Origin: Candidatus Marinacidobacterium sp.
GTDB taxonomy: Bacteria; Acidobacteriota; Vicinamibacteria; Marinacidobacterales; Marinacidobacteraceae
Direction: 5' to 3'
Length of the DNA: 64,000 nucleotides
NCBI GenBank assembly: GCA_965204755.1
Contig: OZ242011.1
Coordinates: 2,432,001 to 2,496,000 of the forward strand
Shown here: piece after piece, positions 2,740 through 16,835 of the stretch
Position numbering within the stretch: position 1 is the first letter of the stretch
Layout: every line of letters starts with the position of its first letter
Notes under the pieces: model-generated
What the model was told of the DNA's origin: nothing
What the model saw: the letters and a program-made list of their open reading frames with translations, nothing else
The model's database searches: none
Translations under genes and position numbers: made by a program

Positions 2740-4398
2740 TCAGCCACCACCCAAGCGGTGTTCTCGTAGGCGCTCCACACCCAGTTCGTCGAGGAGGCGC
2801 CGCGTGAGCGCCTGCTCCCGGTCGTCCGCGAGCCGGTCCACCATGTCGTCGAAGAGTTCCCGCTTTCCTTCCAGGATGCGTTCCAAGCCCTCCTCGACTG
2901 TATCCCGGCAGACGAAGCGGTATTCGCGCACCGACCGAGTTTGGCCGATCCGGTGGACCCGGTCGCGCGCCTGGTTGTTCGTGGACGGGTTCCACCACTG
3001 GTTGAACAGGAATACATGGTTCGCCTCGGTGAGCGTCAAGCCTTCGCCGCCGATGCGTGTCGAGGCGAGCAGCGCGGTCGTCCGTTCGTCCGCGCGAAAC
3101 CGTTGGAGGGCGCGCTCGCGTTCGTCGGCGTCCATTTCACCGACGAACAACAAACCGGCGCTCTCGCCCCAGCGTTCCGTCATCCGCCGGCGGAGTTCGT
3201 GGAGAGGTTTCAGCCGGTGGGAAAAGACGACGGCTTTCTCTCCTTCGTCGCGGATGCCGGCGAGCCGCCCCAGGATTCGATCTCCCTTGCTGCTCTCGTT
3301 GGTGTCCGGATCGAGATCGCAGACCGTGAGGAGCCGCGTGAGCAGCGCCAGTTCTTCACCGGGCGAGCGGTGCTCCCGCAGCGCGCTCCGGTAGGCGCGT
3401 TCCTGTCCGGCGGAGAGTTCCAGGTGTTCCGTCGTCTCGCGACGAGGGGGGAGTTGATCCAGGACTTCCCGTTTCCGCCGTCGCAACATGAACTCCCGCG
3501 CCCGGCTGCGGAGCGAGGCCGGGAGTCGCGCGTCCGATGGCGAGAACCGGGTTGGCTGGACGAGTGCGAGCAGCGTCGCCAAGTCGTCCGGAGCCCGCTC
3601 CAGCGGCGTGCCGCTGATCGCCCAGAACCGCTTGGGCCGCAACCGCGCCAGGCCGCCGGTGACCTTCACGCCCTGCTTGCGCAGTCGGTGCGCTTCGTCG
3701 GCGACGATCACTTCCGGTGGGTTGCCGACCAGCGCTTCCGGCGTCGTCCGCAGGTGTTCGTAGTTGGTCAAGAGCACATGCCGCCGTCCGGCGACCGCCC
3801 GCCACGCATCCTCCCGAATGGATCGGGGCGGGTTCAGGACGGCGACGCCGAGTTCCGGCGCCCACTTTTCGAATTCGTTCTCCCAGGTCGGGATGAGGCC
3901 CTTCGGGCAGACGACGACGACCGTGCGGATCGTCCCCCCATTGAACAGCAGACGGAGAGCGGTGATGACTTGGACGGTCTTCCCCAGCCCCATGTCATCG
4001 GCGAGGATGGCGCCGGTTCGCTCGACGAGCCATTCCACCCCGTCGCGCTGAAAGGGATAGAGACTCTCCATCTCCGGGGGATCGCAGAGCACCGGCAGTA
4101 CCAACTCCCCTACTCCGAGCCGGAGTCGGCGGTATTCCGCCAACTTCGGCCGCATCGCGCGTCCGGAACGGATCGCCCGGTCGGCGGAGACGACGACGCG
4201 CACCTGTTCGCCGTTCTCGACGAGCCGGCGTTGTTGCGCGTCGAGCGAAAGAGCCCACTCGGACGCCACCCTCAACCGCTCGGCGACCGTGGAGGCGTCG
4301 TGGATCGGTGGCGCGGAGGACAGGAACCGGAAGACGACCCCGCCGGAAACCGCATCCACCGGTTGGGATCGAGGCCGGTCGGCGCTCCGCGCCGGCAT
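2740..4398 (-). CDS. SNF2-family DEAH helicase/translocase
   Basis: LYPFQRDGVEWL, LADDMGLGKTVQ, DEAH, SGTPLE, GGEGLTLTEAN, WWNPS..QARDRVHRIGQ. Confidence 0.92.
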   Translation of the reverse strand: MPARSADRPRSQPVDAVSGGVVFRFLSSAPPIHDASTVAERLRVASEWALSLDAQQRRLVENGEQVRVVVSADRAIRSGRAMRPKLAEYRRLRLGVGELVLPVLCDPPEMESLYPFQRDGVEWLVERTGAILADDMGLGKTVQVITALRLLFNGGTIRTVVVVCPKGLIPTWENEFEKWAPELGVAVLNPPRSIREDAWRAVAGRRHVLLTNYEHLRTTPEALVGNPPEVIVADEAHRLRKQGVKVTGGLARLRPKRFWAISGTPLERAPDDLATLLALVQPTRFSPSDARLPASLRSRAREFMLRRRKREVLDQLPPRRETTEHLELSAGQERAYRSALREHRSPGEELALLTRLLTVCDLDPDTNESSKGDRILGRLAGIRDEGEKAVVFSHRLKPLHELRRRMTERWGESAGLLFVGEMDADERERALQRFRADERTTALLASTRIGGEGLTLTEANHVFLFNQWWNPSTNNQARDRVHRIGQTRSVREYRFVCRDTVEEGLERILEGKRELFDDMVDRLADDREQALTRRLLDELGVERLREHRLGGG

Positions 4399-4407
4399 CG
4401 GTGATCC

Positions 4408-5766
4408 CTACGATCCGGCGCCGACGGCCGCGGAGCGGGCGGCAGTGACCCGCTCCCACATGCGCTTGATCTCGTCGTTCGTGGCCGGCGGATAGAGGAA
4501 ACTCGACCAGCGATCGCGGAGATCCTTCTCTTCTTGCTCGGTCAACGGATCGAGGCCCGACATCCAGCGGAACAATTCCTCGGCCCCGTCCACGGCCTTC
4601 GTGCGATCCTCGCTGCGCATTCGCAGTTTCCCGGTCTTCGGGTCCTCGACGAGGAAATAGTTCCGCCACGGCGGGCCGTGGAGGTCCCAGGGCATGGAGG
4701 CCAAGGGACGGAGCGCCTGCACCATCGCCTGGTCGTCGCCGACCGGGTCCAGGTCACACCGATCCAGGAGCGATCGCGCCACTCGCGCCAACACTTCCTG
4801 CCCCACCGGCCAGAACGCGAGGTGGTCCGCGTACTTCTCGGGCTCCGCCTTCGGAATCTCGTGGGCGCGCATCAGTTCCGGTTCGCTGCGAAGCACCGGA
4901 AGGGCCTCGATGAGCGCCGACCAGATCCGGGAGATCTGGTCGTTGTAGGCGGCGATCTCGGTGTCTTCCGGTCGGAATTGCAAGAAGACCTTCAGATCCC
5001 TCGGCCTCCCGAGTTTCTGCCGCCGCGTGACGCCCATGAGCAGGACGCGGTTCATGTAGTAGAGCGTCTGGAGACTCGTGAAGTACTGCTGGCCCGAGCG
5101 CAGGTTCTTTCCGCTCGTCAGCACGCGAAAGGACTCCTTGTGCGGCAGGGGCACGCGGAAGAACTCGTGGTCGGAGATCAGCGCACGGGTCGCGATCGCG
5201 AACACATCGTCTTCGTCCATGATGATGTTCGTGTCGGGGTCCGTCGGCTTCGCGTAGCGGTTCAGGCTGGAGAACAGCCGCCGATACCGTTGAATCCAGA
5301 GCGACTTGTCCCGTTCCTCGGACGGGTCGGGCCGAGGCACGACGATCACCGAGATCTGCTCGTTGGCGAAGTCGGGCGGGGCGCCGGCCGGATCTTCGAG
5401 GAGTTCCTGGATGGAAGTCAGCCGGTGCTGGCCGTCGAGAGCGTAGTAGCGGGGATCCTTCTGGAAGGTCAGTTCGCCGAAGGTCTCGGCGAACCGGGAC
5501 TCCACCGGCGTCCAGGTCGGGTTCCCCCCGATCGCGGCGACGACCAGCGAGGAGTAGAAGCGGTCGGGCCGGCGGGAAAGGAACTTGACGAGTTCGTTCT
5601 TGACCCGCGACTCCTTCACCGCGCGCTGGATCGCGTCGCTCAGCGTCTCGTCGGTCCACAACTCGCTCGCGAGGTCCACTTCGCGAGCGACCTCCCGCAT
5701 GGTCATGCGGGCGATGTAGTAAGTCCAGTCGCCCATCCGGGCGCGCATGGCGGGATAGACCTGCAT
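4408..5766 (-). CDS. DndB-like DGQHR-domain protein (452 aa)
   Basis: Start MQVYPAMRARMGDWTYY with AGGAGG upstream; IQR, RFYSSLVVA, YALDGQHRL, RRLFSSLNRYAKP. Confidence 0.85.
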   Translation of the reverse strand: MQVYPAMRARMGDWTYYIARMTMREVAREVDLASELWTDETLSDAIQRAVKESRVKNELVKFLSRRPDRFYSSLVVAAIGGNPTWTPVESRFAETFGELTFQKDPRYYALDGQHRLTSIQELLEDPAGAPPDFANEQISVIVVPRPDPSEERDKSLWIQRYRRLFSSLNRYAKPTDPDTNIIMDEDDVFAIATRALISDHEFFRVPLPHKESFRVLTSGKNLRSGQQYFTSLQTLYYMNRVLLMGVTRRQKLGRPRDLKVFLQFRPEDTEIAAYNDQISRIWSALIEALPVLRSEPELMRAHEIPKAEPEKYADHLAFWPVGQEVLARVARSLLDRCDLDPVGDDQAMVQALRPLASMPWDLHGPPWRNYFLVEDPKTGKLRMRSEDRTKAVDGAEELFRWMSGLDPLTEQEEKDLRDRWSSFLYPPATNDEIKRMWERVTAARSAAVGAGS

Positions 5767-5789
5767 CGGTGTGTCCTCCTGGCTGCGGC

Positions 5790-7637
5790 TCAGCAGCCGC
5801 GGTGTTCTTTCTTGATTCGATCGAGCGCTTGACGCAGCCGCCGGATGTCGCGGGCGGCCTCCTTGCGGGCCTTCCTGTTGACGGCATCGGTCAGGGGCTT
5901 TCCGCCCTCGGGGAACTCTTCCTTGAGTCCCGGGCGAATCTGCTTCTTGTACCCCCGAAGGACGGTGTTCTCCAGAGTCTCCAGCAGCGTCTCCCGCCAG
6001 CCCTCCCAGTCCGTCGTCCAAGTCTTCGGCCACGGGCCGCCGTAGGCTGCGACCAGCAACTCCAGGTAGGCGCCCAGAGCGTCCGGGACCTGCGAGAAAC
6101 GGTAGTTGACGATGGTGTCGTTGTGATCTTCCGCGATGTGCAGCAGTTCGCGTCGTCCCTGTTTGAGCCAACCCGCGTCGAACAGTCCATTCAGGCCGAT
6201 GGCGAACCGCTTCCCGTACTTCGACCAGTCGGGGTTGTCGAACCGTTCCCGGAGCGCGCCGAAGGCGGCCATGACGCCTCTCATGCCGATATCGAGGCCG
6301 ATCGGTCCGGTGAGATGTTCCTTCTTGAGTTCCTCGATTCGGCCCCGGATGGTGTGGAGTTCCTTCCCTACGGCCTCCTTGATGGGATCATCCGCTCGGT
6401 TGCTGCCGAATCGCAGTTCTTCGAAGGCATGGCTCGCCAGGTCGGACTTCGCGTCGTCGCGGTAGTCCCGCTCGAGTTCGCGGAGTCCCTTCACATAGGA
6501 GGCGAAGGGACGGAAGGTCTGCAGGATGTGCTCGATAGCCGGAAGGATCCGCTTTCGAAAACGCTCCCGCAGCCGTTCACTGTCCGCGTGATTCAGCTTC
6601 TGGACGCCCGTGTTCCGGACGCTCGTGAAGGCGCGGTGGAGTGGATCCGGGGGCACGATTCCGAGGGCCGTTCGCGCCTGCTGGGAGAACTCGTCGACTT
6701 CGCCGTCGTTCTTGAACTCGCATCCGAGGATGTAGTAGCGCAGCCAGTCGCGAAGTTCCTCGACACTCTTGACGGCGGCCGGAGCGGCAACGCGTCGCCC
6801 CAAGCGCTCCTTCCCGGTCCAGTCGTAGAACAGCAGGGGTACGCGGTCGGGGTCTCGCCCCGCCAGCGGGCGGAGGTCGTTCTGGTGCGACCGTTCCAAG
6901 ATCTCCTGCGTGCAGATCGCAGATGGACTCTCGTCGGAGAGGAGGATCTGGCGGGCGACGCTGACGACCTGCGCCGTGGTGTTGATGTACACGAAGATCT
7001 TCCGCACGACATCGACGAGCCGAGGAAGGTTCTTCGCGCTGCCTTGAGAGCGGAAGGTGACGATGACCGCCGGAATACGCCACTGGCGCAATTGCCTGTA
7101 CCCAGACCTCCACATCCTCTTGAGGGCCGACAGTCGGTGTTGGCCGTCGACCGCGACCAGCCGGGTACGGGCGTCGCTCCACTCCAGGACTCCGTACTCG
7201 AAATGGCCCTCCATCCAGCGGACTCGGTAGTGGTCACCGTGGGTCAGGCAGTGCCACGGGGCCTCGCCTTCTCCGGAGATCCGCTGTTTCCGTTTGGTCA
7301 GCCGAGGCATCGCGGCGACGATGGAGCCGGCGCCCGTGGAAACGGGAAGGAGCGTCAGGGTGAGCGGATTGAAGAAGCGGACCTTGTCTTCGGATTCCAA
7401 GTACGGAATGAGGTTGTGCGTGACTCGTTCGAGGTCCACATCCCGCTGGAAGAGGTCCCGGACCGGCCACTGTTCCGATCCCTCGATGTCACTGACGAGC
7501 GAGATGTGATCGAGTTGGGCGGGATCGAGAGCGGTCTGGAGGTAGAGGGCGCTCACGCCGGAGCCGGCGCCGAATTCGCCGTACGCGCCGGCGAGTCGTT
7601 GGTTGAAGAGATGGTCCTTGACGGGAGGGGGAGGCAT
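5790..7637 (-). CDS. DndB-like DGQHR-domain protein (615 aa)
   Basis: LFQRDVDLERV, RFFNPLT, VAVDGQHRLSAL, RKIFVYINTTA. Confidence 0.85.
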   Translation of the reverse strand: MPPPPVKDHLFNQRLAGAYGEFGAGSGVSALYLQTALDPAQLDHISLVSDIEGSEQWPVRDLFQRDVDLERVTHNLIPYLESEDKVRFFNPLTLTLLPVSTGAGSIVAAMPRLTKRKQRISGEGEAPWHCLTHGDHYRVRWMEGHFEYGVLEWSDARTRLVAVDGQHRLSALKRMWRSGYRQLRQWRIPAVIVTFRSQGSAKNLPRLVDVVRKIFVYINTTAQVVSVARQILLSDESPSAICTQEILERSHQNDLRPLAGRDPDRVPLLFYDWTGKERLGRRVAAPAAVKSVEELRDWLRYYILGCEFKNDGEVDEFSQQARTALGIVPPDPLHRAFTSVRNTGVQKLNHADSERLRERFRKRILPAIEHILQTFRPFASYVKGLRELERDYRDDAKSDLASHAFEELRFGSNRADDPIKEAVGKELHTIRGRIEELKKEHLTGPIGLDIGMRGVMAAFGALRERFDNPDWSKYGKRFAIGLNGLFDAGWLKQGRRELLHIAEDHNDTIVNYRFSQVPDALGAYLELLVAAYGGPWPKTWTTDWEGWRETLLETLENTVLRGYKKQIRPGLKEEFPEGGKPLTDAVNRKARKEAARDIRRLRQALDRIKKEHRGC

Positions 7638-7649
7638 GAGCGGTTGGTG

Positions 7650-8282
7650 TCAGTGGATGCTGAAGGGTGGCCGGCAGGCGTTCATGAGGATGTGCTCGAT
7701 GAGGCCGGTCAGTGCTTCGTCGTCGATGCGACCGAGGTCTTGGCGGACGGACTTCTCGGTCCGGAGACAGGCGAAGAGGAGGTCGGACACGGGAAGGGAG
7801 ATTCCGAGTTCCTCCGTGTGACGGGTGAAGCGGCGGTGGAAGTTGCCGTTGGAGTTCCTGACATGCTCCGAGTATCGGCGCTTCAGGCAGTTCGTTCGGC
7901 CCACATACAGCGGGGGCATGAGCAAACTGGCTTCGAGAAGCAGGCGCTGCAGTGCGGTTCTCGTCTTCGACACCGACACGAGGCGCTTCCAAGTCTCCTC
8001 CGCGTCGCTACTCGTGTGGACGCGTTCGGTCCGACTGACGAGGAGATCGACGGACTGCCAGGTGAACTTCGCCGGAACCCGCCGCTCCGTCGGGTCGTCG
8101 TAACTGCGCAGATCGCGAACGATCTGCATCAACTTGGGGAGATCCCGGTCGTAGATCCAGAGCGGGACGAACCAGGCGTAGCAGCCAGGTTCTTCCGGGA
8201 TCTTGTGGGAGGTCTCGCTCGTGTAGAACGCGAGGCGGCCGTCGGCGCTCCGGAGGTCGCGGAAAACGCTGAGGTCGGTCAC
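7650..8282 (-). CDS. GIY-YIG-like nuclease (210 aa)
   Basis: PGCYAWF...LYVGRTNCLKRRYSEH...IEHIL..PPF; GTG start overlaps the cysteine desulfurase stop (GTGA). Confidence 0.7.
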   Translation of the reverse strand: MTDLSVFRDLRSADGRLAFYTSETSHKIPEEPGCYAWFVPLWIYDRDLPKLMQIVRDLRSYDDPTERRVPAKFTWQSVDLLVSRTERVHTSSDAEETWKRLVSVSKTRTALQRLLLEASLLMPPLYVGRTNCLKRRYSEHVRNSNGNFHRRFTRHTEELGISLPVSDLLFACLRTEKSVRQDLGRIDDEALTGLIEHILMNACRPPFSIH

Positions 8283-9556
8283 GACGAAGATCGGTTCGCG
8301 GCGCGCCGCCGTGCGGATTCGAGTCGCGTGGCCAGATGGACCGGCGCGGACTCCTCGGTCATCGGGCCGAGGGCGAGGCGGAGGGTGGAGTAGGCGTCGG
8401 TCGGGGTGAGGCCGAGGGCGCGGAGGACCTGGGAGGGTTCCGGGGCGCCGGAGTGGCAGGCGGAGGCGGCGGAGAGGTCGAAGGCGGGGAGGTTGGCGAT
8501 GAGGGCGTCGGCGTCCGCGCCGGGGAAGGTGATCGATGTCGTGTGCGGGAGGCGGTGGGCGAGGGCGCCGTTGATGCGGGCTTCGGGGACGCGCGCGGTG
8601 ATTTCGCGTTCGAGGCGGTCGCGGAGGGCGGCGAGGCGGGGGGCCACTTGCGGGAGGCGGGCGACGGCGTTCGTGGCGGCTTCGGCGAAGGCGGCGATGG
8701 CCGGGGTGTTGGAGGTGCCCGGGCGGAGGCCGCGTTCGTGGCCGCCGCCGAACTGGATCGGGGCGACGGGGGCCCGGCGGGGGCCGCCTCGGACGAAGAG
8801 GGCGCCGACGCCCTTGGGGCCGTAGCACTTGTGGCCGCTCAGCGAAGCGAAGTCGAGGTCGAGGGATTCGACATCGAAGGGGATCTTCCCGAGGGCCTGC
8901 GCGGCGTCGGAATGGACCGGGACGCCGTGTTCCCGCGCGAGCGCGGCCGCCTCGGCGACCGGTTGGATCGTGCCGATCTCGTTGTTCGCGGTCTGGATGC
9001 TGAGGAGGAGCGCCGGTTCGTCTTCGGGCGGGGCGAGCAGGGCTGCCAGGGAGTCGAGGTCCACGCGGCCGTCCCGGCCGACGGGGGCGGTCAGCAACTC
9101 GAAGCCGTCCGCCGCCAGGTATCGCGCCGGGGCGAGGACCGACGGGTGTTCGATGGGCAGGGTGACGATGCGGCGGCGGGCGTCGCCTCGTTCGCGCGCG
9201 GCGCGGGCGGCGCCGAGGAGCGCCAGGTTGTTGCTCTCCGTCGCGCCGCCGGTGAAGACGATCTCTTCCGGAAGCGCGCCGACCGCTTCCGCCAGTCGTT
9301 CGCGGGCGTTTTCGACGATCTCGGCGGCGCGCTTTCCGGCGCGGTGGGCGCTCGAAGGGTTCGCGTAGGTCTCCTCGGCGACTCGCTGCATCAGCGCGAG
9401 GGCCGCCGGGTCCATCGGCGTGGACGCCTGGTGGTCGAGGTAGGTGCGGGTCGGTACGGCGGTCACGGCGCGCGCCGGCGGCCCGGCCGACGGCGATACG
9501 ACCGGAGCGGCCGGCGCGGCCATCCCCGAGGGAAGGGCCGGCGCGGGGGCGCTCAC
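8279..9556 (-). CDS. sspA: Cysteine desulfurase (IscS/DndA/SspA-like); start uncertain
   Basis: YLDHQASTP, FTGGATESNN, NNEIGTIQP, HSDAAQ, SGHKCYGPKG (PLP Lys), SAASAC (catalytic Cys); symbol assigned from operon context. Confidence 0.9.
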   Translation of the reverse strand: MSAPAPALPSGMAAPAAPVVSPSAGPPARAVTAVPTRTYLDHQASTPMDPAALALMQRVAEETYANPSSAHRAGKRAAEIVENARERLAEAVGALPEEIVFTGGATESNNLALLGAARAARERGDARRRIVTLPIEHPSVLAPARYLAADGFELLTAPVGRDGRVDLDSLAALLAPPEDEPALLLSIQTANNEIGTIQPVAEAAALAREHGVPVHSDAAQALGKIPFDVESLDLDFASLSGHKCYGPKGVGALFVRGGPRRAPVAPIQFGGGHERGLRPGTSNTPAIAAFAEAATNAVARLPQVAPRLAALRDRLEREITARVPEARINGALAHRLPHTTSITFPGADADALIANLPAFDLSAASACHSGAPEPSQVLRALGLTPTDAYSTLRLALGPMTEESAPVHLATRLESARRRAANRSSS

Positions 9557-10422
9557 TTGTGACACATCAGGCACAGGTCGTCCTCGTCGTCGCCGAGCGC
9601 CTCGTAACCGAAGGCCTGGCCGAGGGTCTTCGGGCGGCGTCTCGCCGCGCGGCGCTCCCGATCCTTCGCTTCCCGGTCGAGGATCTGCTGCGTGCGGGCC
9701 GGGTCTTCGATCTGCGTGAGGCTCTCGTGACTCACCCAGGTGTATCCCTCTTCCTCCTTCTCGTAGGCCTTGGCCTTCTCGTAGAGGTCGGGGTGTTCCC
9801 GGCGCAGCCGCACCCACTCGCCGCGCTGCTGGAAGAAGCAGAAGTAGCAGCCGGAGCGGGAACGCCATTCGTAGTACTTCGGCACGCCGACGCCGCTGGT
9901 TTCCAGCAGGCGCAGGACATCGCCCTTGGCGAGTCCGTCCTCCTTGAACGGGAAGACCGCGGTGATGTTGGGTTTCGTGGAGATGTAGCCGCCGCGGTTC
10001 TCGTCGGCGCGGATGCCGACATAGAGGAGCGTGGGGTCGTCGCCGACATACTTCTCGAAGGGCTCGATCTTGAGCAGCCGGGTGCACCACCTGGCGCTGG
10101 GCGAGGGCAGGAAGCCGCCGTAGAGTTTGAGGAAGTGGTCGAAGCCGCGGTCGCCGTGTTCCGAAGCGAGGCGGACGATGGGGCGGCCGAGCCGCGCTTC
10201 GATGCGGGCCAGGTACTCGTAGGTTTCGGGGAGTTCCTTGTGGGTATCGCAGAAGAGGTACTCGTAGTCGGTTTCGGGGTGCTTCTCGCGGAGGTAGAGC
10301 GCCAGCGCGGTCGAGTCCTTGCCGCCGGAGAGCGTCACGATGTGGCGCACGGCTTCCGAACCGTCGGCGGGAGCCCCAGCGCGGCCCGAGCGCGCGGCGT
10401 CCTCTTTCGTACCGGCGCTCAT
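9553..10422 (-). CDS. sspD: PAPS-reductase family protein, SspD-like
   Basis: LSGGKDS PP-loop, RWCTRLLKIEPF, GIRADE, RSRSGCYFCFFQ, C-terminal CLMCHK; lies between the ATPase and the desulfurase. Confidence 0.85.
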   Translation of the reverse strand: MSAGTKEDAARSGRAGAPADGSEAVRHIVTLSGGKDSTALALYLREKHPETDYEYLFCDTHKELPETYEYLARIEARLGRPIVRLASEHGDRGFDHFLKLYGGFLPSPSARWCTRLLKIEPFEKYVGDDPTLLYVGIRADENRGGYISTKPNITAVFPFKEDGLAKGDVLRLLETSGVGVPKYYEWRSRSGCYFCFFQQRGEWVRLRREHPDLYEKAKAYEKEEEGYTWVSHESLTQIEDPARTQQILDREAKDRERRAARRRPKTLGQAFGYEALGDDEDDLCLMCHK

Positions 10423-13400
10423 GCGTCAGGCCTCGGGCGGGGCGGTCCGACGGCAGGTTCGATGAGCCGGGTCAACAGCGTGAGCGCGGCTTGGTGTTCC
10501 TGCGGCGTGTAGCGCGCCATCGCGCCGCGCCAGTCTTCGAACAGGCGCTCGGCCGCCCCGTTGCCGTTCGCTGCGCCGTTGGCGGGGGCGCCGTTGCCGT
10601 TCGCCGCACCGTTGGCGGGGGCGCCGTTCCCCTCCGCCGCCGCGGCCCTCGACGAAACGCCCTCCGCGGCGCGGGAATCCACCAAGCGGCCCAGCCGAGC
10701 CATCTCGTGGGCCAGCAGCCGGATGCGCGCTTCCGCCCGCTCCGCCCGGTCGTCGTTCCAGCGGTCCGCCGGGAGCCCGTCGCCCAGCGGGAGCGCGAGC
10801 GTCTCCCGCCAGTCCGTCCGGTCGTCGTCGGTCCGGAGCGCCGCTTCGAGGAATTGCCTCAGGGTCAACTCGGTGGCGTGCTCCCGCAGCCGCATCGCCT
10901 CCTCGCGCAGTCGGCGCGGGAGGTCGGCGTCCGTCTCCGCCCGTTCCGCCGGCGCTCCCCCGGCCCCGGATTCCGCCGCGACCGCCCGGCCGAGTTCGCG
11001 TTCGAGCCGCCGGAGCAGCGACGGGTAGGCCGCGCCGATCTCCTCGACCGCCATCCCCAACCGGGCCGCGTACTCGGCGCCGTCCGTCCGCCCTCGCGTC
11101 GGCGAGGCCAGGCCCAGCGCCTTCGGGAGGTCGCGGAGGACCAGGTCGCGCGGATCCCGGGCGGACAGCAACTCGTCGCGGACGCGGCGGGAGTCGTCGC
11201 CGATCCGTCGCGTCTGCCGGGCGTACGCGGGCAGGCGAACGGCGCCGCCCACGAGCCGGCGCGTGACCGCGAGCAGCCGCTGGTCGTCCCGCGCGGAGTC
11301 CGGGACGCCGAAGGCGCGGCCGACAGCCCGCAACACCCGCCGCTCGGCCGGGCGGAACCGCAGTGACCGGAGCGCGAAGGTCTCCGGGCGGCGGATGAGG
11401 CGCTCCAGCGTCTCGATGCCGGTGTCCGGGACGAACAGCCCGTCCTCGTAGAGCGCGACGCGGTCGCCGAACACCCGGAGGTAGAGCGCGAGCAGCACCG
11501 GGAACGGCCCGGAGCGCAGCCCGAACGGGGGCGCTTCCAACCGGGCGATGAGGTCGGTGAGCGGCCTCGGCGCCTCGGCCGCTTGCCGGACGAACTCCGA
11601 GATCGCCTTCCACACCGGCTTCCAGGCCGGCGCGGTCGGCGAATCCAACCGGAACGACCCGTCGCGGCGCCTCCGGTGGAAGCCGCCCGCCTCGACCAGC
11701 GAGCAGTACATGCTGAACTCCGGCGGGAAACCCCGGATTCCCAACCGCTCTTCGGCGCTCCCGGCGACGATGCGCTCGATCAGGTTCCGCCGCCCGGCGG
11801 CCGCCGCCGCCGACAGCGCGCTGCGGTTCAGCAACTCGTTGCGCAGCGGCGGCGCCTCGGCGTACTCCTCGTCGCAGAGGCGGGTGAGGCGCGCCTGGAG
11901 CGCCCGCGGCCCGGTCAACTCGGTCGCCTCGTCGCCGGCGAAGAACCAGCGCCAATGTGACGGGTCGAGGACATGGCCGGAGAGGCCGAGCGCCGGGCCG
12001 GCGGCCTCCTCGAACCGCCGCCGCGCCGCGTCCTCGCGTTCGGCGGCTTCCCGGCGGGCGGCTTCGTCGCCGGCGAGTTCGGGGACCCGCTCCCGCACCT
12101 GCCGCCAGGCCTCCACTTCGTCGAGGGCCGCGCCGAGCGCCTCCGGCTTCCGCGAGACCGCCACGACCACCGGCCGGCCCGGCGGCCGCTCGCCGAAGAG
12201 ACTCGCTCGCTCGCTGTCTCCGTCCCCCGCGCCGCGGCCGCCGGCCGCCCGCGCCCGGGCCGGCGGAAGGTCCCCGAGGACGAAGAGCAGGATCCCGTCG
12301 GCGGCGGCGGGTTCGGCGAGCGCTTCGTCGAGGGCGTCCGGCGCGGTGAGGCGCGGCTCGAACCAGCGGAGCGTCCCGGTGCGGACGCTGTGCTCGCGGG
12401 CCACCGGGGGCCGGGGTTCGCTGACGCGGCGGAGCCGCTCGTGGAGCGGCGCGGGCTCCCGCTCGGCGAGCGCCTGCGCCAGCGAGTCGTCGAGGTCGAG
12501 GTCGGAGCCCTCCCAGAGCCCGTAGGCCGAACGGTGCCGCCGCCAGAGCGCGATGGACTCCCGGGTGAGACCGGCGAGCGCCGCGCGAACCGCCTTCGGC
12601 GGGCGGTCGTCCAGCGCGGTCTCCAGGGTCTCCCGGTCCGGGCGCAGCCCGACGGGGTCCCCGTAGAGCGTGAGCAGGCCGATGGCCTTGACCAGGTCGG
12701 CGGCGAGCGGCGGCGCGTCCGCCGGCACGCGGTCGAGCGCCCCGGCGATGAGGCGGAAGCGGCGCGCGTCCGGGCCGCTGAACGCGGCGGAACCCAGCGC
12801 CTCCACCGCGTAGTCGTAGAGCCGGGGCAGGCGGAAGAACGGTGGCGGGGTCCCCGGGGCGACGGTCTCCTCGTCGAGGAACCGGCGGAAGCCATAGGGC
12901 TCGTGGCTGGTCAGGAAGGCGAACAGCGAGCGCTCGTTCTGCGCCGCCTTGCTGCGGAACAGCGGCCAGAGCAGCAGGGCCGTCGTCGCGTGGAGCGGGG
13001 CGCAGGCGGCCACGCGGGCCGGCGCGGCGGGCGGGCGGCGGCTCCGGCGGTGGAGCGTCCCGGCGAGGGCGGCGGCGCGCGCCGCGTAGGGGTCCTCCGC
13101 GGCGTCCTTCTCCGGCGCCCGGCCCAGCGCGGCGGCGATCAGGTCGAGGACCTGGTCGTCGGGGAGGGCGAAGGGGAGGTCCTGGAACCGGCCTTGGACC
13201 TTCTGCCACTCGGCGCGGCGGCGGGCGGAGGCGCCGGCGCCGGGGAGGTAGTCGGAGAAGCCCGAGTGGAGCGCGCCGATGAGCAGCAGCGGCCGTTCGC
13301 TCCGCGCCGCGGCTTCCGCGAGTTGCTGGAGGAAGAAGATGTCCTCGGTGTCCTCGCCGGCGGCGAATTCGAGGTACTTGCCGAGTTCGTCGAGGACGAG

Positions 13401-13976
13401 CAGCAGCCCGCCCGGGCTTTGGGCCGCGGCTTCGGAGAGCAGCGCGGCGCACTTGGCGCCGGACGGCGCGGCGCTCCGCGCGAGGGCCAGCGCCCGGCGG
13501 CGGATCGTCGGGAGGCCGGCGGCGGCGAGCGAGCCGGCGACGGCCGGGATCAGCGGGGCGGCCTCCGCCTGGAGCAGCAGGGGGGTGAGCGGCGCGGCGC
13601 GCTTCGGGAAGAGGTCGCCGCGCAGCCGCTCCGCTTCCGGGTGCTCCGGGGCCCTCCGGGCCAGCAGGTCGGCGAGGAAGAGGAGGAACGAGGACTTGCC
13701 CGAGCCGTAGGGGCCGGTGAGCGTCCAAGCGCGGGCTCCTCCGGGAGTCGTCAGGTCTTCGAGGATTTGGCGGGCGGTCTCCCGGATGGCGCCGGTGACC
13801 ACATAGCCGCCGGGGGCGTCCCGGTTCTCCCAGTCGCGGGGGAGGTGCGCCGAGCGGTGGAAGCGGAGGGGCGGCCGCACCAGGGCCCGGAGCGGGCGCG
13901 GCGCCGGCCGGGAAGTCGTCTGCCGGGCCGGGCGCGGTTTCGCCGCGGCGGCCGGGCGGCTCAGTTTCGATACCAC
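10419..13976 (-). CDS. sspC: Large P-loop ATPase, SspC-like (~1185 aa)
   Basis: TGPYGSGKSS Walker A, LVLDELGKYLE Walker B, FLQQLAE, EWQKVQGRF, AQNERSLFAFL, PPFGLRSG. Confidence 0.82.
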   Translation of the reverse strand: MVSKLSRPAAAAKPRPARQTTSRPAPRPLRALVRPPLRFHRSAHLPRDWENRDAPGGYVVTGAIRETARQILEDLTTPGGARAWTLTGPYGSGKSSFLLFLADLLARRAPEHPEAERLRGDLFPKRAAPLTPLLLQAEAAPLIPAVAGSLAAAGLPTIRRRALALARSAAPSGAKCAALLSEAAAQSPGGLLLVLDELGKYLEFAAGEDTEDIFFLQQLAEAAARSERPLLLIGALHSGFSDYLPGAGASARRRAEWQKVQGRFQDLPFALPDDQVLDLIAAALGRAPEKDAAEDPYAARAAALAGTLHRRSRRPPAAPARVAACAPLHATTALLLWPLFRSKAAQNERSLFAFLTSHEPYGFRRFLDEETVAPGTPPPFFRLPRLYDYAVEALGSAAFSGPDARRFRLIAGALDRVPADAPPLAADLVKAIGLLTLYGDPVGLRPDRETLETALDDRPPKAVRAALAGLTRESIALWRRHRSAYGLWEGSDLDLDDSLAQALAEREPAPLHERLRRVSEPRPPVAREHSVRTGTLRWFEPRLTAPDALDEALAEPAAADGILLFVLGDLPPARARAAGGRGAGDGDSERASLFGERPPGRPVVVAVSRKPEALGAALDEVEAWRQVRERVPELAGDEAARREAAEREDAARRRFEEAAGPALGLSGHVLDPSHWRWFFAGDEATELTGPRALQARLTRLCDEEYAEAPPLRNELLNRSALSAAAAAGRRNLIERIVAGSAEERLGIRGFPPEFSMYCSLVEAGGFHRRRRDGSFRLDSPTAPAWKPVWKAISEFVRQAAEAPRPLTDLIARLEAPPFGLRSGPFPVLLALYLRVFGDRVALYEDGLFVPDTGIETLERLIRRPETFALRSLRFRPAERRVLRAVGRAFGVPDSARDDQRLLAVTRRLVGGAVRLPAYARQTRRIGDDSRRVRDELLSARDPRDLVLRDLPKALGLASPTRGRTDGAEYAARLGMAVEEIGAAYPSLLRRLERELGRAVAAESGAGGAPAERAETDADLPRRLREEAMRLREHATELTLRQFLEAALRTDDDRTDWRETLALPLGDGLPADRWNDDRAERAEARIRLLAHEMARLGRLVDSRAAEGVSSRAAAAEGNGAPANGAANGNGAPANGAANGNGAAERLFEDWRGAMARYTPQEHQAALTLLTRLIEPAVGPPRPRPDA
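10558..10628. repeat. 33-bp in-frame tandem duplication (NGAPANGAANG x2) in the SspC C-terminal tail
   Basis: 10558-10590 and 10591-10623 differ at only two positions. Confidence 0.85.
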
Positions 13977-15056
13977 CGTTCGAGGAGGGAGAGCGGGCGC
14001 GGGGCGCCGCGGCGGTGGAGTCCGCGGAGTCCGGCGGTCTCGTCGTAGCGGAGGCCGGTGTCCTTCGGGAGGCGCTCGAGAGCGGCGACCAGACTGCGGT
14101 CGTCGAGCCGGAAGGCCGCGCCGGGGCTGCCGGGGTGGAAGAGGAGCCGTTCGAGGGTCAGCGTCTGCTGTCCGGCGGCCCTCGCGTCCCAGAACTCGAG
14201 GACGGCGAAGGCGAGTACGGCGTCGGGCAGGCTGGGCCGGGGGCCGCGCGGGATCGCGTAGCGGCGGCCCGCGAGCGGGCGGATCAGGCCGAGTTCGGCC
14301 AGCGGGCAGTCGAAGGACTCTTCCACCGGCCGGCGGCGGTCGTTCTTCGGCGGCAGGTAGGTGCGCAGGAAGACATCCACATCCCGGCGGATCGAGGACA
14401 GCGAGACCGCGCGGCCCGGCGGCGCGGCGTTCCGGGCCTGGAGGAGGAGCCACTGCGCCAGCCCCTCGCGGGTGAACGAGGACTCCGGGAACCGGGTGAA
14501 CGCCAGGCGCCAGGTGGACGCCGGCGCCGTCGGCGCCGTGAGACGCCAGTGGAGCAGCCAGAGGGTCCCGGGGTCTTCCAGGAACGGGTCTGCGCCCGAA
14601 AGGGCGTCAGCGGCGCTCTCAGCGCCGTTCAGCGACTGGTGAGAGTGGAGTCCCGGTGATTTCTGGGGGGGGGGGGGGGGGGGGTAGGTTGGTTCGGAGG
14701 TCGGGGCCGGCGCCGAGGAGGAGCGTTCCGAGGTCGGTCAGGCGGGCCTCGCGGCCCCGGTCGCGCGGCGTTCGGCCGCGAGCCCCGGCGGCGAATCGGA
14801 TCAGTCCGGCGGCGGCGCACCAGTGCCGGATGGAGGCGACCATGTTCTTCCCGACGCCGAGCCGGGCGAGCGCGTCCGGGCGGGCGAAGAGGGCGGGGTC
14901 TTCGTGGATCGCGGCGGCGGCCTTGGCGAACCAGCCGTGCCGGAACGGGAAGGTCTGATGCCCGGTGAACCGGTAGGCGGGGTCGGCCGCCGCGCCGGGG
15001 ACGGGGCCGCCGGGAGCGCGGGCGGCGGTTCCGGCGAGCGACCCGGTGGGAGGCAC
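13961..15056 (-). pseudogene. sspB: DUF4007/SspB-like gene frameshifted at a C20 tract (phase-OFF allele or sequencing error)
   Basis: N-half FTGHQTFPFRHGW..LGVGKNMVASIRHW in one frame; DPFLEDPGTLWLLHW..FDCPLAELGL..SPGAAFRL..DETAGL in another; removing one C joins them into ~364 aa. Confidence 0.85.
14665..14684. repeat. G20 homopolymer (C20 on the coding strand)
   Basis: Counted 20 consecutive G at 14665-14684. Confidence 0.95.
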
Positions 15057-15435: not shown

Positions 15436-16371
15436 TCAGCGGCCTCGGGGCTCGCCCCGGAAGACCTGCTTCCGATGCCATGCCACGAACTCGGCGCTCG
15501 GGAGGAACTTCCCCTCCTGCGGCGGTCGGAGCGGGCGACCGCGGGCGTCCACGAGTTGGCGGAAGACCTCGCCTTGACCGCTCAGATTCCGGGACACGAG
15601 AAGGACGAAGCCGGCGCCGGCTTCGCGTTCGAGGCCGATGGCGCCCCGGTCGAGGGCGCGGTGGTGGAAGGCGCAGAGCGCGAGCCCGTTCGGGATCGTG
15701 TCGGGGCCTCCGTGGGAATGCCAGCGGATGTGGGCCGCATCGAGCCCGAAGAGATCGTCGGAGAGACGGATGTCGTAGTCGCACACCGCGCAGCGGCGCT
15801 CGTAGGCCGTGAGCACCAACTCCCGGAAGCGCGGGTCGCGCGGCCTTCGGCGCGCGGCGTCGAAGATCGTGTCTTCATGGCTCATGACCTCGTCGAGGCC
15901 GACCTCGTTCCGTATCGCTTGGTGCAGGGACTCCGGGAAATGGTCGGTGAGCAACCGGTTCGCGGCGCGCTCGACGAGTTCGCGATCGGCGAGCAACAGG
16001 CTCTGCAGCGACTCCGGGAACCCGCCCGCCACGGCGTGTTCCCGAAGATACTTCGCTCGGAGGTCGTCCCAACTGGTCTTGGCCTTTTCGGGCAGGGTCT
16101 CGAAACCCGGAATCTCCCAGAGTCCGTCCGTAAGCAGCCGTCGGAACGGATGTTCGGGATGGTGCCGTTTCCTCGGCGGGCCGAACCGTTCGAGCAGTCC
16201 GCTCAGTGGTCTCTCGATTTCGCGGCCGAAGTCGTGGAGGCGCGACGCCTCGCCCCTCGCCACGCGACCGAGCGCGAGCAGCAGAAGCAGCGGCTTGTGC
16301 GGCGCTCGTTTGCCTCCCTTCCGATGGACCCTCAGCCCGTCGAGACGGCGAAGGAACTCTTCGGGCGTCAT
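15436..16371 (-). CDS. SBD-HNH-like putative phosphorothioate-dependent restriction endonuclease
   Basis: N-terminal RAPHKPLLLLLAL and PEHPFRRL (sulfur-binding-domain-like); C-terminal FRELVLTAYERRCAVC, AAHI, NGLALCAFHH HNH. Confidence 0.8.
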   Translation of the reverse strand: MTPEEFLRRLDGLRVHRKGGKRAPHKPLLLLLALGRVARGEASRLHDFGREIERPLSGLLERFGPPRKRHHPEHPFRRLLTDGLWEIPGFETLPEKAKTSWDDLRAKYLREHAVAGGFPESLQSLLLADRELVERAANRLLTDHFPESLHQAIRNEVGLDEVMSHEDTIFDAARRRPRDPRFRELVLTAYERRCAVCDYDIRLSDDLFGLDAAHIRWHSHGGPDTIPNGLALCAFHHRALDRGAIGLEREAGAGFVLLVSRNLSGQGEVFRQLVDARGRPLRPPQEGKFLPSAEFVAWHRKQVFRGEPRGR

Positions 16372-16382
16372 CGCGTATCGAG

Positions 16383-16835
16383 TCAGTCGTTCGTTTCAGT
16401 AAGTCGGCGGTGGTCCTCCCGCGAGCGGGAGAGGGCGCGGTTGGCCAGGTTGATCGGGTCTTCGTTGCCGGTGAGTCCGAAGCCCTTCTCCTCGAGCATC
16501 TCGCTGACGCGTTCGCATTCGGCCCAGTAGGCCTGCTCGGCGCGTTCCTTCGCTTCCGGGCCGTCGTCGGGGTTCCACGAGGGGCCCATGGCGGGCAGCG
16601 CGTCCAGGCCGGTGACCCGGCCGTCCTCGTGGATGCGGACATGACGGTCGTTCGTCATGCGGTGCATGGCGTAGTAATCCAGGAACTCCCCGTCCTCGTC
16701 CCGGTCGAAGAGGAACCAGATCGCCCAACCTTGGTCGAGGATCTGCCCGCGCTCCCGCTGCCGGACGGCGCCGGCGGGCAGGCGTATGCCCCAGTGGTCG
16801 AACATGTCGCCGAAGATGGTTTCGATGCGTTCCAT
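16383..16835 (-). CDS. Hypothetical acidic protein (150 aa)
   Basis: GGAGG upstream of the ATG; ends 11 bp before the HNH start; no recognised motif. Confidence 0.65.
   Translation of the reverse strand: MERIETIFGDMFDHWGIRLPAGAVRQRERGQILDQGWAIWFLFDRDEDGEFLDYYAMHRMTNDRHVRIHEDGRVTGLDALPAMGPSWNPDDGPEAKERAEQAYWAECERVSEMLEEKGFGLTGNEDPINLANRALSRSREDHRRLTETND

Follow-up and report, generated by a model that had tools for sequence, protein, structure and literature searches.

A GIY-YIG nuclease and DGQHR protein module encoded downstream of an Ssp-type phosphorothioation gene set in Candidatus Marinacidobacterium

A 64,000-nucleotide stretch of the genome of Candidatus Marinacidobacterium sp. (contig OZ242011.1, positions 2,432,001 to 2,496,000; hereafter the window) carries, between positions 2740 and 15056, eight co-oriented genes on the minus strand. 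Their order is sspB-sspC-sspD-sspA, followed by the genes for a GIY-YIG nuclease (GIY), for two proteins with a DGQHR motif of 615 and 452 amino acids (aa), designated DG615 and DG452, and for an SNF2-family ATPase. The four ssp genes are predicted to encode an Ssp-type writer of phosphorothioate (PT) marks on DNA. The distal genes probably provide a PT-coupled restriction (anti-phage) arm, which by analogy would resemble the effectors SspE or DndI split into separate proteins. At related loci the conserved core of this module is a nuclease plus DG615, mostly together with a superfamily 2 (SF2) helicase, and DG452 with SNF2 is one of several interchangeable arms. The Ssp writer is already known; the companion module is new. 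The sequence-only reading, made from the letters of this DNA without database searches, knew of no description of the gene combination, and literature searches found no paper describing it, while the supplements of PMC8092258 and PMC10853773 may list such neighbourhoods.

The Operon and Its Writer Genes

In the order of transcription, the operon comprises the following features (positions refer to the window):

13961 to 15056, minus strand: sspB (DUF4007 protein), GTG start at 15056; split into an N part running to a TGA at 14619 and a C part ending at 13961
14665 to 14684, minus strand: C20 homopolymer in the sspB linker (G20 on the plus strand), poly-proline if in frame
10419 to 13976, minus strand: sspC, BrxC/ORC-like AAA+ ATPase, 1185 aa, GTG start at 13976, PADLOC SspC
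9553 to 10422, minus strand: sspD, PAPS-reductase-like ATP pyrophosphatase, 289 aa, PADLOC SspD and Pfam PAPS_reduct
8279 to 9556, minus strand: sspA, class-V aminotransferase/cysteine desulfurase, 425 aa, GTG start at 9556, PADLOC SspA
7650 to 8282, minus strand: predicted GIY-YIG nuclease, 210 aa, from predicted fold and invariant residues
5790 to 7637, minus strand: DG615, 615 aa, with an N-terminal DGQHR domain and a helical C-terminal half of about 390 aa, from motifs and predicted fold
4408 to 5766, minus strand: DG452, 452 aa, DndB-family DGQHR protein paired with SNF2, from Pfam DndB and TIGR03187
2740 to 4398, minus strand: SNF2-family ATPase, 552 aa, helicase core only, the N-terminal stretch of about 110 aa being uncharacterised

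The sspB/sspC junction is a 16-bp overlap; sspC/sspD (ATGA), sspD/sspA (GTGA) and sspA/GIY (GTGA) overlap by 4 bp each, and the last three junctions (GIY/DG615, DG615/DG452 and DG452/SNF2) are gaps of 12, 23 and 9 bp, respectively. Because of these overlaps and short gaps, all eight genes are assigned to one operon. The gene order and all junction sizes of the sequence-only reading were reproduced exactly from the start and stop coordinates.

The reading of the first four genes as sspB, sspC, sspD and sspA is upheld by PADLOC profiles together with matching Pfam domains. SspB scores 80.4 and 180.9 bits with its N and C parts against PADLOC and 84 and 162.1 bits against Pfam DUF4007, where the parts cover profile positions 1-79 and 74-288, respectively. 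SspC reaches 792.2 bits in PADLOC, SspD 360.3 bits (Pfam PAPS_reduct 41.5 bits), and SspA 408.2 bits, with 397.6 bits for DndA and 199.4 bits for Pfam Aminotran_5, the sspA scores being computed on the 416-aa translation of 8279-9529. The SspABCD gene set is thus complete at the locus; only sspB lacks an intact reading frame, and the frames of the other seven genes are intact.

The G+C content of the four distal genes is 63.0-67.5%, compared with 74.7-76.6% for sspB, sspC and sspA, 66.6% for sspD and 71.2% for the window overall. The dip at the effector genes (GIY and DG615) is seen also at four related loci (L001, L002, L004 and L009); the low G+C of the distal genes could reflect a different origin or a compositional constraint. 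A scan for promoters and terminators gave 0 promoter-like sites and 10 terminator-like sites against a background of 7.9. Neither a tRNA nor an Rfam family was found near the locus to mark the borders of a putative island.

Linkage of the Module to ssp Genes

Loci encoding DG615 were collected from species-representative genomes (27 loci) and from metagenome contigs (80 loci) by a pattern-based search, which favours conserved members, and the window genes, together with additional genes encountered at these loci, were mapped onto them by tblastn. The fetched DNA contains sspB, sspC or sspD at 23 of the 27 genome loci and at 49 of the 80 metagenome loci. When only loci with at least 3 kb of DNA upstream of DG615 are counted, the figures rise to 23/23 and 34/35, respectively, so that the recurrence of ssp genes together with relatives of the distal genes, which the sequence-only reading had named as a check, is confirmed. 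Genome loci in which ssp genes are missing number four (L020, L023, L024 and L026), each with less than 1.9 kb upstream, and the sole exception among the longer contigs is the metagenome locus L107, where PbeA/PbeC-like genes stand upstream instead. Where at least 700 bp of upstream sequence is available, a nuclease gene adjoins DG615 at 21/26 genome and 69/71 metagenome loci; where the downstream sequence extends to at least 1.8 kb, a helicase gene is present at 20/25 and 36/41, respectively. Many genomes share the gene order, and the association is not due to chance.

The carriers belong to Acidobacteriota, Latescibacterota, Pseudomonadota, Planctomycetota, Bacteroidota, Ignavibacteriota and others. 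Within the bacterial family to which the window belongs, DG615 occurs in 5 of 28 genomes, with a single copy in the genome of the window; such patchiness is as expected for accessory defence genes. A plasmid collection contained only distant DndB-annotated matches (24-29% identity); the match in Nonomuraea is without annotation and stands in a Dnd-type, not an Ssp-type, context.

Variants of the Module

In its common form, the locus reads sspBCD, a DUF1232 protein in part of the loci, GIY and DG615, followed by a helicase of about 540 aa with ResIII and Helicase_C domains. DG452 and SNF2 represent a rarer helicase arm, found at 12/27 and 11/27 genome loci, respectively, and at 2/80 and 1/80 metagenome loci. 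The form of the window, GIY-DG615-DG452-SNF2, is shared by L001, L003-L005, L007-L009 and L012, with two DG615 copies in L009 and L012, while L021 has DG452 without SNF2. The nuclease varies as well: a short canonical GIY-YIG protein follows DG615 in L019 and L022 (Pfam 18.5 and 27.1 bits), and in L017 (5298-9772) a 540-aa helicase, a GHKL ATPase and a PLD-type nuclease are encoded upstream of DG615. In L015, DG615 neighbours a PLD-helicase scoring as PbeA (531.5 bits) and an ABC ATPase scoring as PbeC; L011 has a PLD-helicase and an ABC ATPase beside DG615, according to tblastn with the L015 and L003 proteins and Pfam; and in L003 a PbeC-like ABC ATPase lies between sspD and GIY. The four distal genes, which the sequence-only reading had treated as one set, consequently do not hold as a conserved unit; what is conserved is the nuclease and DG615, mostly with an SF2 helicase. 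This exchange of nuclease and motor around a constant DGQHR protein points to a restriction arm and is at odds with an invariable step of biosynthesis.

A quick tree of 70 DG615 sequences places the window in a well-supported clade of 18 sequences together with most loci of the DG452/SNF2 type. The partner labels on this tree are imperfect, the "A" label being inflated by cross-hits of DG452 on DG615 (L020, L097, L070 and L072), for which reason the tree is used for the position of the window in its 18-member clade only.

Further observations concern individual variants. The DUF1232 protein is encoded between sspD and GIY/DG615 in L016, L018, L019, L022 and L027 and at 39/80 metagenome loci (e.g., L047-L055); it scores 34-45 bits in Pfam in L019 and L022 and is absent from the window. 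The GHKL ATPase of L017 resembles MzaB (66.5 bits, far under the cutoff), and the set is divergent from sspBC. On the short contig L020 (541-6779), DG615 is situated between a PAPS-reductase-like gene and sspA and is followed by a 593-aa GmrSD_N (DUF262) protein matching PADLOC HEC-05; this locus may hold both a DGQHR protein and a DUF262-type effector.

The Proteins of the Module

DG615 represents a distinct protein family of about 600 aa, and its gene is the signature gene of the module. Three motifs, the QR pair, DGQHR and FxxxN, define the DGQHR domain (PMC4619093), and all three are invariant in 15 relatives of DG615 (Q64-R65, D164-R168, and F215 with N219, respectively). By hhalign, the first approximately 250 residues align with DG452 at 97.6% probability over about 200 columns, whereas the C-terminal halves of the two proteins do not align. 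The assignment of DG615 as a DGQHR protein, made in the sequence-only reading, is therefore retained on the basis of the three motifs and the alignment with DG452, its profile scores being below the cutoffs. The AlphaFold2 (AF2) model of DG615 has a pLDDT of 81.4. Residues 19-225 are matched with proteins of the ParB/sulfiredoxin (Srx) fold (PadC, Z 6.3; KorB, 5.4; ParB-N, 5.2; sulfiredoxin, 4.9). Within the helical C-terminal half, residues 376-443 resemble sigma-factor region 4 (Z 5.7 and 5.1), and the rest gave no specific structural match. With Z values under 8 throughout, these similarities, those to the ParB/Srx fold included, serve as leads. The family is populous, comprising 893, 478 and 142 representative clusters at E≤1e-3, 1e-10 and 1e-30, respectively, and it is hardly annotated: among 120 homologues listed, the only source name is "hypothetical protein", in three entries, and the automatic name in the ESM Atlas is "DndB family". 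DG615 matched 0 families in PADLOC and not TIGR03233, and a profile search of PDB sequences gave no match.

The nuclease likewise escapes recognition by sequence, since it stays below the Pfam cutoff; the GIY-YIG identity proposed in the sequence-only reading is carried by the fold search and by invariant residues. When its AF2 model (pLDDT 87.5) was compared with 48,161 chains by VIA-align, the six best matches were all GIY-YIG nucleases with Z scores of 5.0-7.8, namely, UvrC-N (7.8), T4 EndoII (7.7), a plant Grx N-domain (7.5), I-TevI (7.1), PD-T4-3 (5.2) and R.Eco29kI (5.0), while the best unrelated chain reached 3.1. Residues G33, Y35, Y126, G128, R136, H140 and E196 are invariant in 17 sequences, and Y35, Y126, R136, H140 and E196 are presumably the catalytic Tyr/Tyr/Arg/His/Glu set of I-TevI and UvrC. 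Between the GIY and YIG strands, the window nuclease has an insert of about 85 aa. Foldseek of the PDB with the model returned nothing at E≤0.001, the best match being R.Eco29kI at E 0.2, and a sequence search of the PDB gave no match. The nuclease matched 0 PADLOC families, the 2023 release (PADLOC 2.0) containing no model that matches GIY or DG615, and the ESM Atlas names it automatically "hypothetical protein". The long and short GIY-YIG forms align by hhalign at only 47.5% probability, and orthology between them is not claimed.

DG452 and SNF2 are recognised directly, as a DGQHR protein and an SNF2-family ATPase, respectively, in agreement with the sequence-only reading, by their profile scores and invariant motifs. 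DG452 scores 106.6 bits for Pfam DndB (cutoff 29.1) and 83.5 bits for TIGR03187 DGQHR (cutoff 58.85). It retains the QR, DGQHR and FxxxN motifs, and D111-R115 is invariant in 13 sequences. PADLOC matched it to DndB only, and searches of PDB sequences with the single sequence and with a profile gave no match. SNF2 scores 150.2 bits for Pfam SNF2-rel_dom and 68.6 bits for Helicase_C, and its motifs GLGKT (137-141), DEAH (234-237) and motif VI (476-486) are invariant in 12 sequences. Among 25 of its 40 PADLOC matches, only the helicase portions of other proteins are found (ZorD, 227.2 bits; DpdE, 185.1 bits; DrmD; BrxH).

Comparison with Known PT-Linked Systems

SspE is a DUF262 NTPase joined to a DUF1524/HNH nickase, and its NTPase and nicking activities are stimulated by PT (PMC8092258, PMC7461809). 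DUF262 and DGQHR are homologous domains of the ParB/Srx fold (PMC4619093), and the DGQHR domain is homologous to the DUF262/DGQQR NTPase domain of SspE, DndI and GmrSD; SspE has been termed a DndB equivalent by Rakesh et al. (PMC10853773). The window shares with SspABCD-SspE the writer genes and a companion in which a DGQ(Q/H)R domain, predicted to adopt this fold, is associated with a nuclease. It differs in that the nuclease is of the GIY-YIG instead of the HNH type and is a separate protein, and in that two DGQHR paralogues and an SNF2 motor are present. By Pfam, no DUF1524 or HNH domain occurs in the distal proteins, and their motif is DGQHR, not DGQQR. Among the PADLOC matches listed for the distal proteins (for SNF2, the 25 of 40 mentioned above), there is no SspE or Pbe profile, in line with the earlier statement that the known PT partners are not recognisable here. 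The module, called unfamiliar in the same reading, is not wholly so, considering that the DGQHR domain is a published homologue of the domain in SspE, DndI and GmrSD and that relatives of the module have Pbe-like neighbours.

By analogy, the closest mechanistic model for DG615 plus GIY would be DndI, in which the ATPase activity of a DGQQR domain is stimulated by PT DNA and controls a nickase, ATP hydrolysis releasing the protein from self DNA so that the latter is spared (PMC11662687). In contrast to the window module, DndI (of the IscS-DndBCDE-DndI system) unites its activities with an HNH domain in one polypeptide, pairs with the Dnd system, which makes double-strand PT, and has no helicase partner. 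Like the module, SspFGH accompanies sspBCD as a set of several genes, with an NTPase and a DNA translocase among the products (PMC8092258), but SspF is of the Walker A type and SspH resembles FtsK; neither an FtsK-type Pfam domain nor an SspF, SspG or SspH name among the PADLOC matches listed was found for the distal proteins, the presence of SspFGH models in that library being unconfirmed. PbeABCD (CxC-ABC) is likewise linked to PT and combines a nuclease with an SF2 helicase, and the relatives L015, L011 and L003 adjoin Pbe-like genes. Yet PbeA combines PLD, ResIII and Helicase_C domains and PbeC is an ABC ATPase, whereas the window operon has neither a PLD domain nor an ABC ATPase, and PbeB and PbeD are small proteins and not DGQHR proteins. 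Diverse nucleases including URI/GIY-YIG have been described in neighbourhoods of Dnd, not Ssp, genes (PMC10853773). With DndB and DpdB, finally, the module shares the DndB-family assignment of DG452, and a similarity of the SNF2 core to DpdE, limited to the C-terminal helicase portion of the latter; DG452 is nevertheless far under the DndB equivalog cutoff. A second base modification of the Dpd kind was considered but finds no support, as the operon proteins contain no TGT/Que-type (7-deazaguanine) Pfam domain, a result obtained on these proteins and not by a dedicated genome search.

Proposed Mechanism

DG615 and DG452 are proposed as readers of the PT state because of the logic known from DndI and SspE and the homology of DUF262 with DGQHR. 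DG615, and possibly DG452, would act as NTP-driven switches sensing the PT state of DNA and would license or restrain the separate GIY-YIG nuclease, which in turn would nick or cut invader DNA. SNF2 would translocate along DNA, either scanning it for marks or bringing nuclease and target together. PT could act in either direction, activating the arm as in SspE and Pbe or blocking it as in SspFGH and DndFGH. It is from these analogies that we infer restriction of phage, PT dependence and a role for each protein. The earlier view of the distal genes as a different PT-coupled effector accordingly survives in part: the absence of SspE or Pbe matches, the linkage to ssp and the invariant motifs speak for it, while the four genes are neither a unit nor wholly unfamiliar.

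The Poly-C Tract in sspB and the Upstream Endonuclease

Across the C20 tract, the reading frame changes between the N part of sspB (14619-15056) and the C part, which ends at 13961; a tract of C19 or C22 fuses them, and the C19 allele suggested in the sequence-only reading was thus correctly named. The frame of the C part has no ATG, GTG or TTG start before 14380. In the 64-kb window, the tract is the sole homopolymer of at least 12 nucleotides, and from composition about 9e-5 runs of at least 20 C or G would be expected. Throughout the 1.27 Mb of fetched loci, every homopolymer of at least 12 lies inside sspB of one of seven loci (L001:2725, L002:2004, L007:2921, L008:2711-2888, L009:2795, L012:2884 and L015:3730). 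These tracts are C19-C32, plus a G14 in L007, occupy the same linker position and are mostly flanked as TA-Cn-GAA. Six assemblies have an unbroken tract; each of them keeps exactly one of the three frames open through the linker (poly-proline), and five of the six are out of frame. Stieleria tagensis (L019) carries the module without such a tract.

Metagenome runs labelled as of sponge or marine origin (X1-X18, six coded studies) contain near-identical copies of the sspB region; 11 of the 18 runs listed contain at least half of the sampled sspB-region words. Judging from these run labels, the organism apparently lives in association with sponges or in the sea. The long contigs of run X13 end at the tract, which is spanned by five short contigs (38-42 letters, 0-2 gaps, depths of 9.8-55). 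These bridging contigs can be read as tract lengths of about C18-C22, although slippage in library preparation or sequencing could look alike; on this interpretative assignment of lengths, the in-frame C19 has a depth of 45 and C20 one of 34.8. The comparison used contigs only, and differences in depth as well as uncovered parts are not interpreted.

Taken by its sequence, the tract is likely to be hypermutable, and it resembles a contingency (phase-variation) switch located in the gene of a PT writer: as in contingency genes, a long simple repeat lies in a coding region and changes in its length switch the frame. Since sspB is out of frame at C20, the Ssp system may be switchable or off. One targeted literature search found no report of a phase-variable PT writer. 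The nearest known precedent is the G-tract switch in Streptomyces pglX.

Upstream of the operon, two further open reading frames lie on the same strand:

15436 to 16371, minus strand: SBD-HNH type phosphorothioated-DNA-binding restriction endonuclease, 311 aa, NF045808; 379 bp upstream of sspB
16383 to 16835, minus strand: 150-aa open reading frame ending 11 bp before the start of the SBD-HNH gene

The SBD-HNH gene was missed in the sequence-only reading, whose inventory of the eight-gene content stands otherwise. It is intact and is assigned by NCBIfam NF045808 ("phosphorothioated DNA-binding restriction endonuclease", 301.9 bits, cutoff 180) and Pfam HNH_2 (30.9 bits), PT dependence being predicted from the profile. 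PT-dependent type IV restriction enzymes of this kind (ScoMcrA/SprMcrA) are rarely (<3.6%) coupled to PT writers, for which mutated writers have been offered as one explanation (PMC7461809). While they are thus usually found apart from the writers, here they stand beside ssp in the window and in seven related loci, L001 (two copies), L002, L005, L007, L008, L009 (two copies) and L012. They are found in 7/8 tract-bearing loci, the window included, versus 1/20 tractless ones (Fisher p 5e-5, which is overstated since the loci are kin). The 150-aa reading frame belongs to no Pfam or NCBIfam family and has no homologue among the 27 genome loci.

Assessment of Alternative Explanations

Several observations weigh against a PT-coupled restriction arm, or against the assignments on which it is built. 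DndB, which in the sources consulted is the only characterised DGQHR protein, is described as a PT regulator and not an effector (PMC4507180, PMC12839542). DG615 remains under both of its cutoffs (TIGR03187 DGQHR, 30.9 of 58.85 bits; Pfam DndB, 18.3 of 29.1 bits), and its model matches the SspE structure 7drr at a Z score of 3.9 only. GIY scores 19.2 bits against Pfam PF01541 (E 0.0015; cutoff 22.6) over residues 125-152 only, and all structural Z scores of GIY and DG615 are below 8. With a mean column identity of 62% across phyla, DG615 is unusually well conserved for a defence sensor. The metagenome loci hold near-duplicates, 87 long DG615 copies reducing to 70 distinct ones; a helicase is not recognisable at 5/25 genome and 5/41 metagenome loci; and in L002 a DndB-like gene replaces GIY. 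The pairwise identities of SspD and DG615 are correlated with a Spearman coefficient of 0.266 (190 pairs; 85 of 2000 permutations as high), a weak correlation, for which reason co-evolution is not used as support. Finally, sspB is frameshifted in this assembly.

On a first alternative view, the DGQHR proteins would be DndB-like regulators or accessory factors setting the site or level of PT, e.g., by controlling or loading SspBCD with ATP, and GIY-YIG would be a nicking helper for modification. DG452 is a clear member of Pfam DndB at 106.6 bits, DndB is reported to regulate PT modification (PMC4507180), the ParB-like ATPase DpdB drives the insertion of a DNA modification (PMC12839542), and DG615 is conserved like a biosynthetic enzyme and is nearly inseparable from sspBCD. 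This explanation is nonetheless considered rather unlikely: DG452 reaches only 58.7 of the 328 bits of the DndB equivalog TIGR03233, the additional 390 or so amino acids of DG615 are not in DndB, the swapping of the nuclease (GIY-YIG, PLD or PbeA type) and of the helicase (SNF2 or ResIII) fits effectors, and characterised SspABCD systems, as described in PMC8092258, make PT without such genes. On a second view, the four distal genes would be an independent defence system, a GIY-YIG/ParB-like/SNF2 machine acting regardless of PT and carried as cargo within ssp operons or a defence island. Defence genes often nest in other systems (bioRxiv 10.1101/2024.01.29.577857), and the weak co-evolution with SspD (rho 0.266), the G+C of 63-67.5% in the effector genes against 75-77% in sspB, sspC and sspA (66.6% in sspD) and the L107 module, which is located beside Pbe-like genes and not ssp, would all be in accordance with cargo. 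On the other hand, ssp genes occur at 57 of 58 loci with enough upstream DNA, the module is translationally coupled to sspA by a 4-bp overlap, and the same order is seen in Acidobacteriota, Pseudomonadota, Planctomycetota, Bacteroidota, Ignavibacteriota and Latescibacterota, so that independence is judged unlikely.

Less probable again is that the locus is a decaying or silent remnant in which sspB is frameshifted, PT synthesis is absent and the downstream genes have no functional relevance for this organism. C20 puts sspB out of frame, as do the tracts in five of the six related assemblies in which they are unbroken; but two thirds of tracts with random lengths would be expected out of frame, each of the six assemblies keeps exactly one frame open across the linker, and the X13 contigs point to lengths of about C18-C22 including the in-frame C19, a slippage artefact being possible. 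Moreover, the other seven genes are intact and the catalytic residues are invariant. Thus, the PT-coupled restriction arm is preferred as the probable role of the distal module.

A wider proposal, entertained as a rather improbable one, starts from a putatively switchable writer beside a predicted PT-dependent nuclease and regards the Ssp loci of this clade as a two-state immune switch. The hypermutable sspB tract would flip PT writing ON and OFF, and the locus would bear both an arm against DNA in the wrong PT state (GIY-YIG/DGQHR/SNF2) and the SBD-HNH enzyme against PT-marked DNA. PT-bearing phage progeny from ON cells would be cut in OFF cells, whereas unmarked progeny from OFF cells would be restricted in ON cells. 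If this were true, a phage acquiring the host mark would gain nothing at the population level, and the presence of a PT-dependent restriction enzyme beside a PT writer would be explained.

Implications

According to PMC8092258, 83.9% of 2,678 sspBCD clusters have neither sspE nor sspFGH nearby, and the module described here is a widespread candidate partner for some of these orphan clusters. As a PT-coupled arm, it would extend the DGQ(Q/H)R NTPase-plus-nuclease logic of SspE and DndI to a set of separate proteins, with another nuclease fold and with a motor, and its variants would provide natural swaps for dissecting how PT is read. Together, the poly-C tract and the adjacent PT-dependent endonuclease suggest that PT marks may be phase-variable in uncultured sponge- or marine-associated bacteria.

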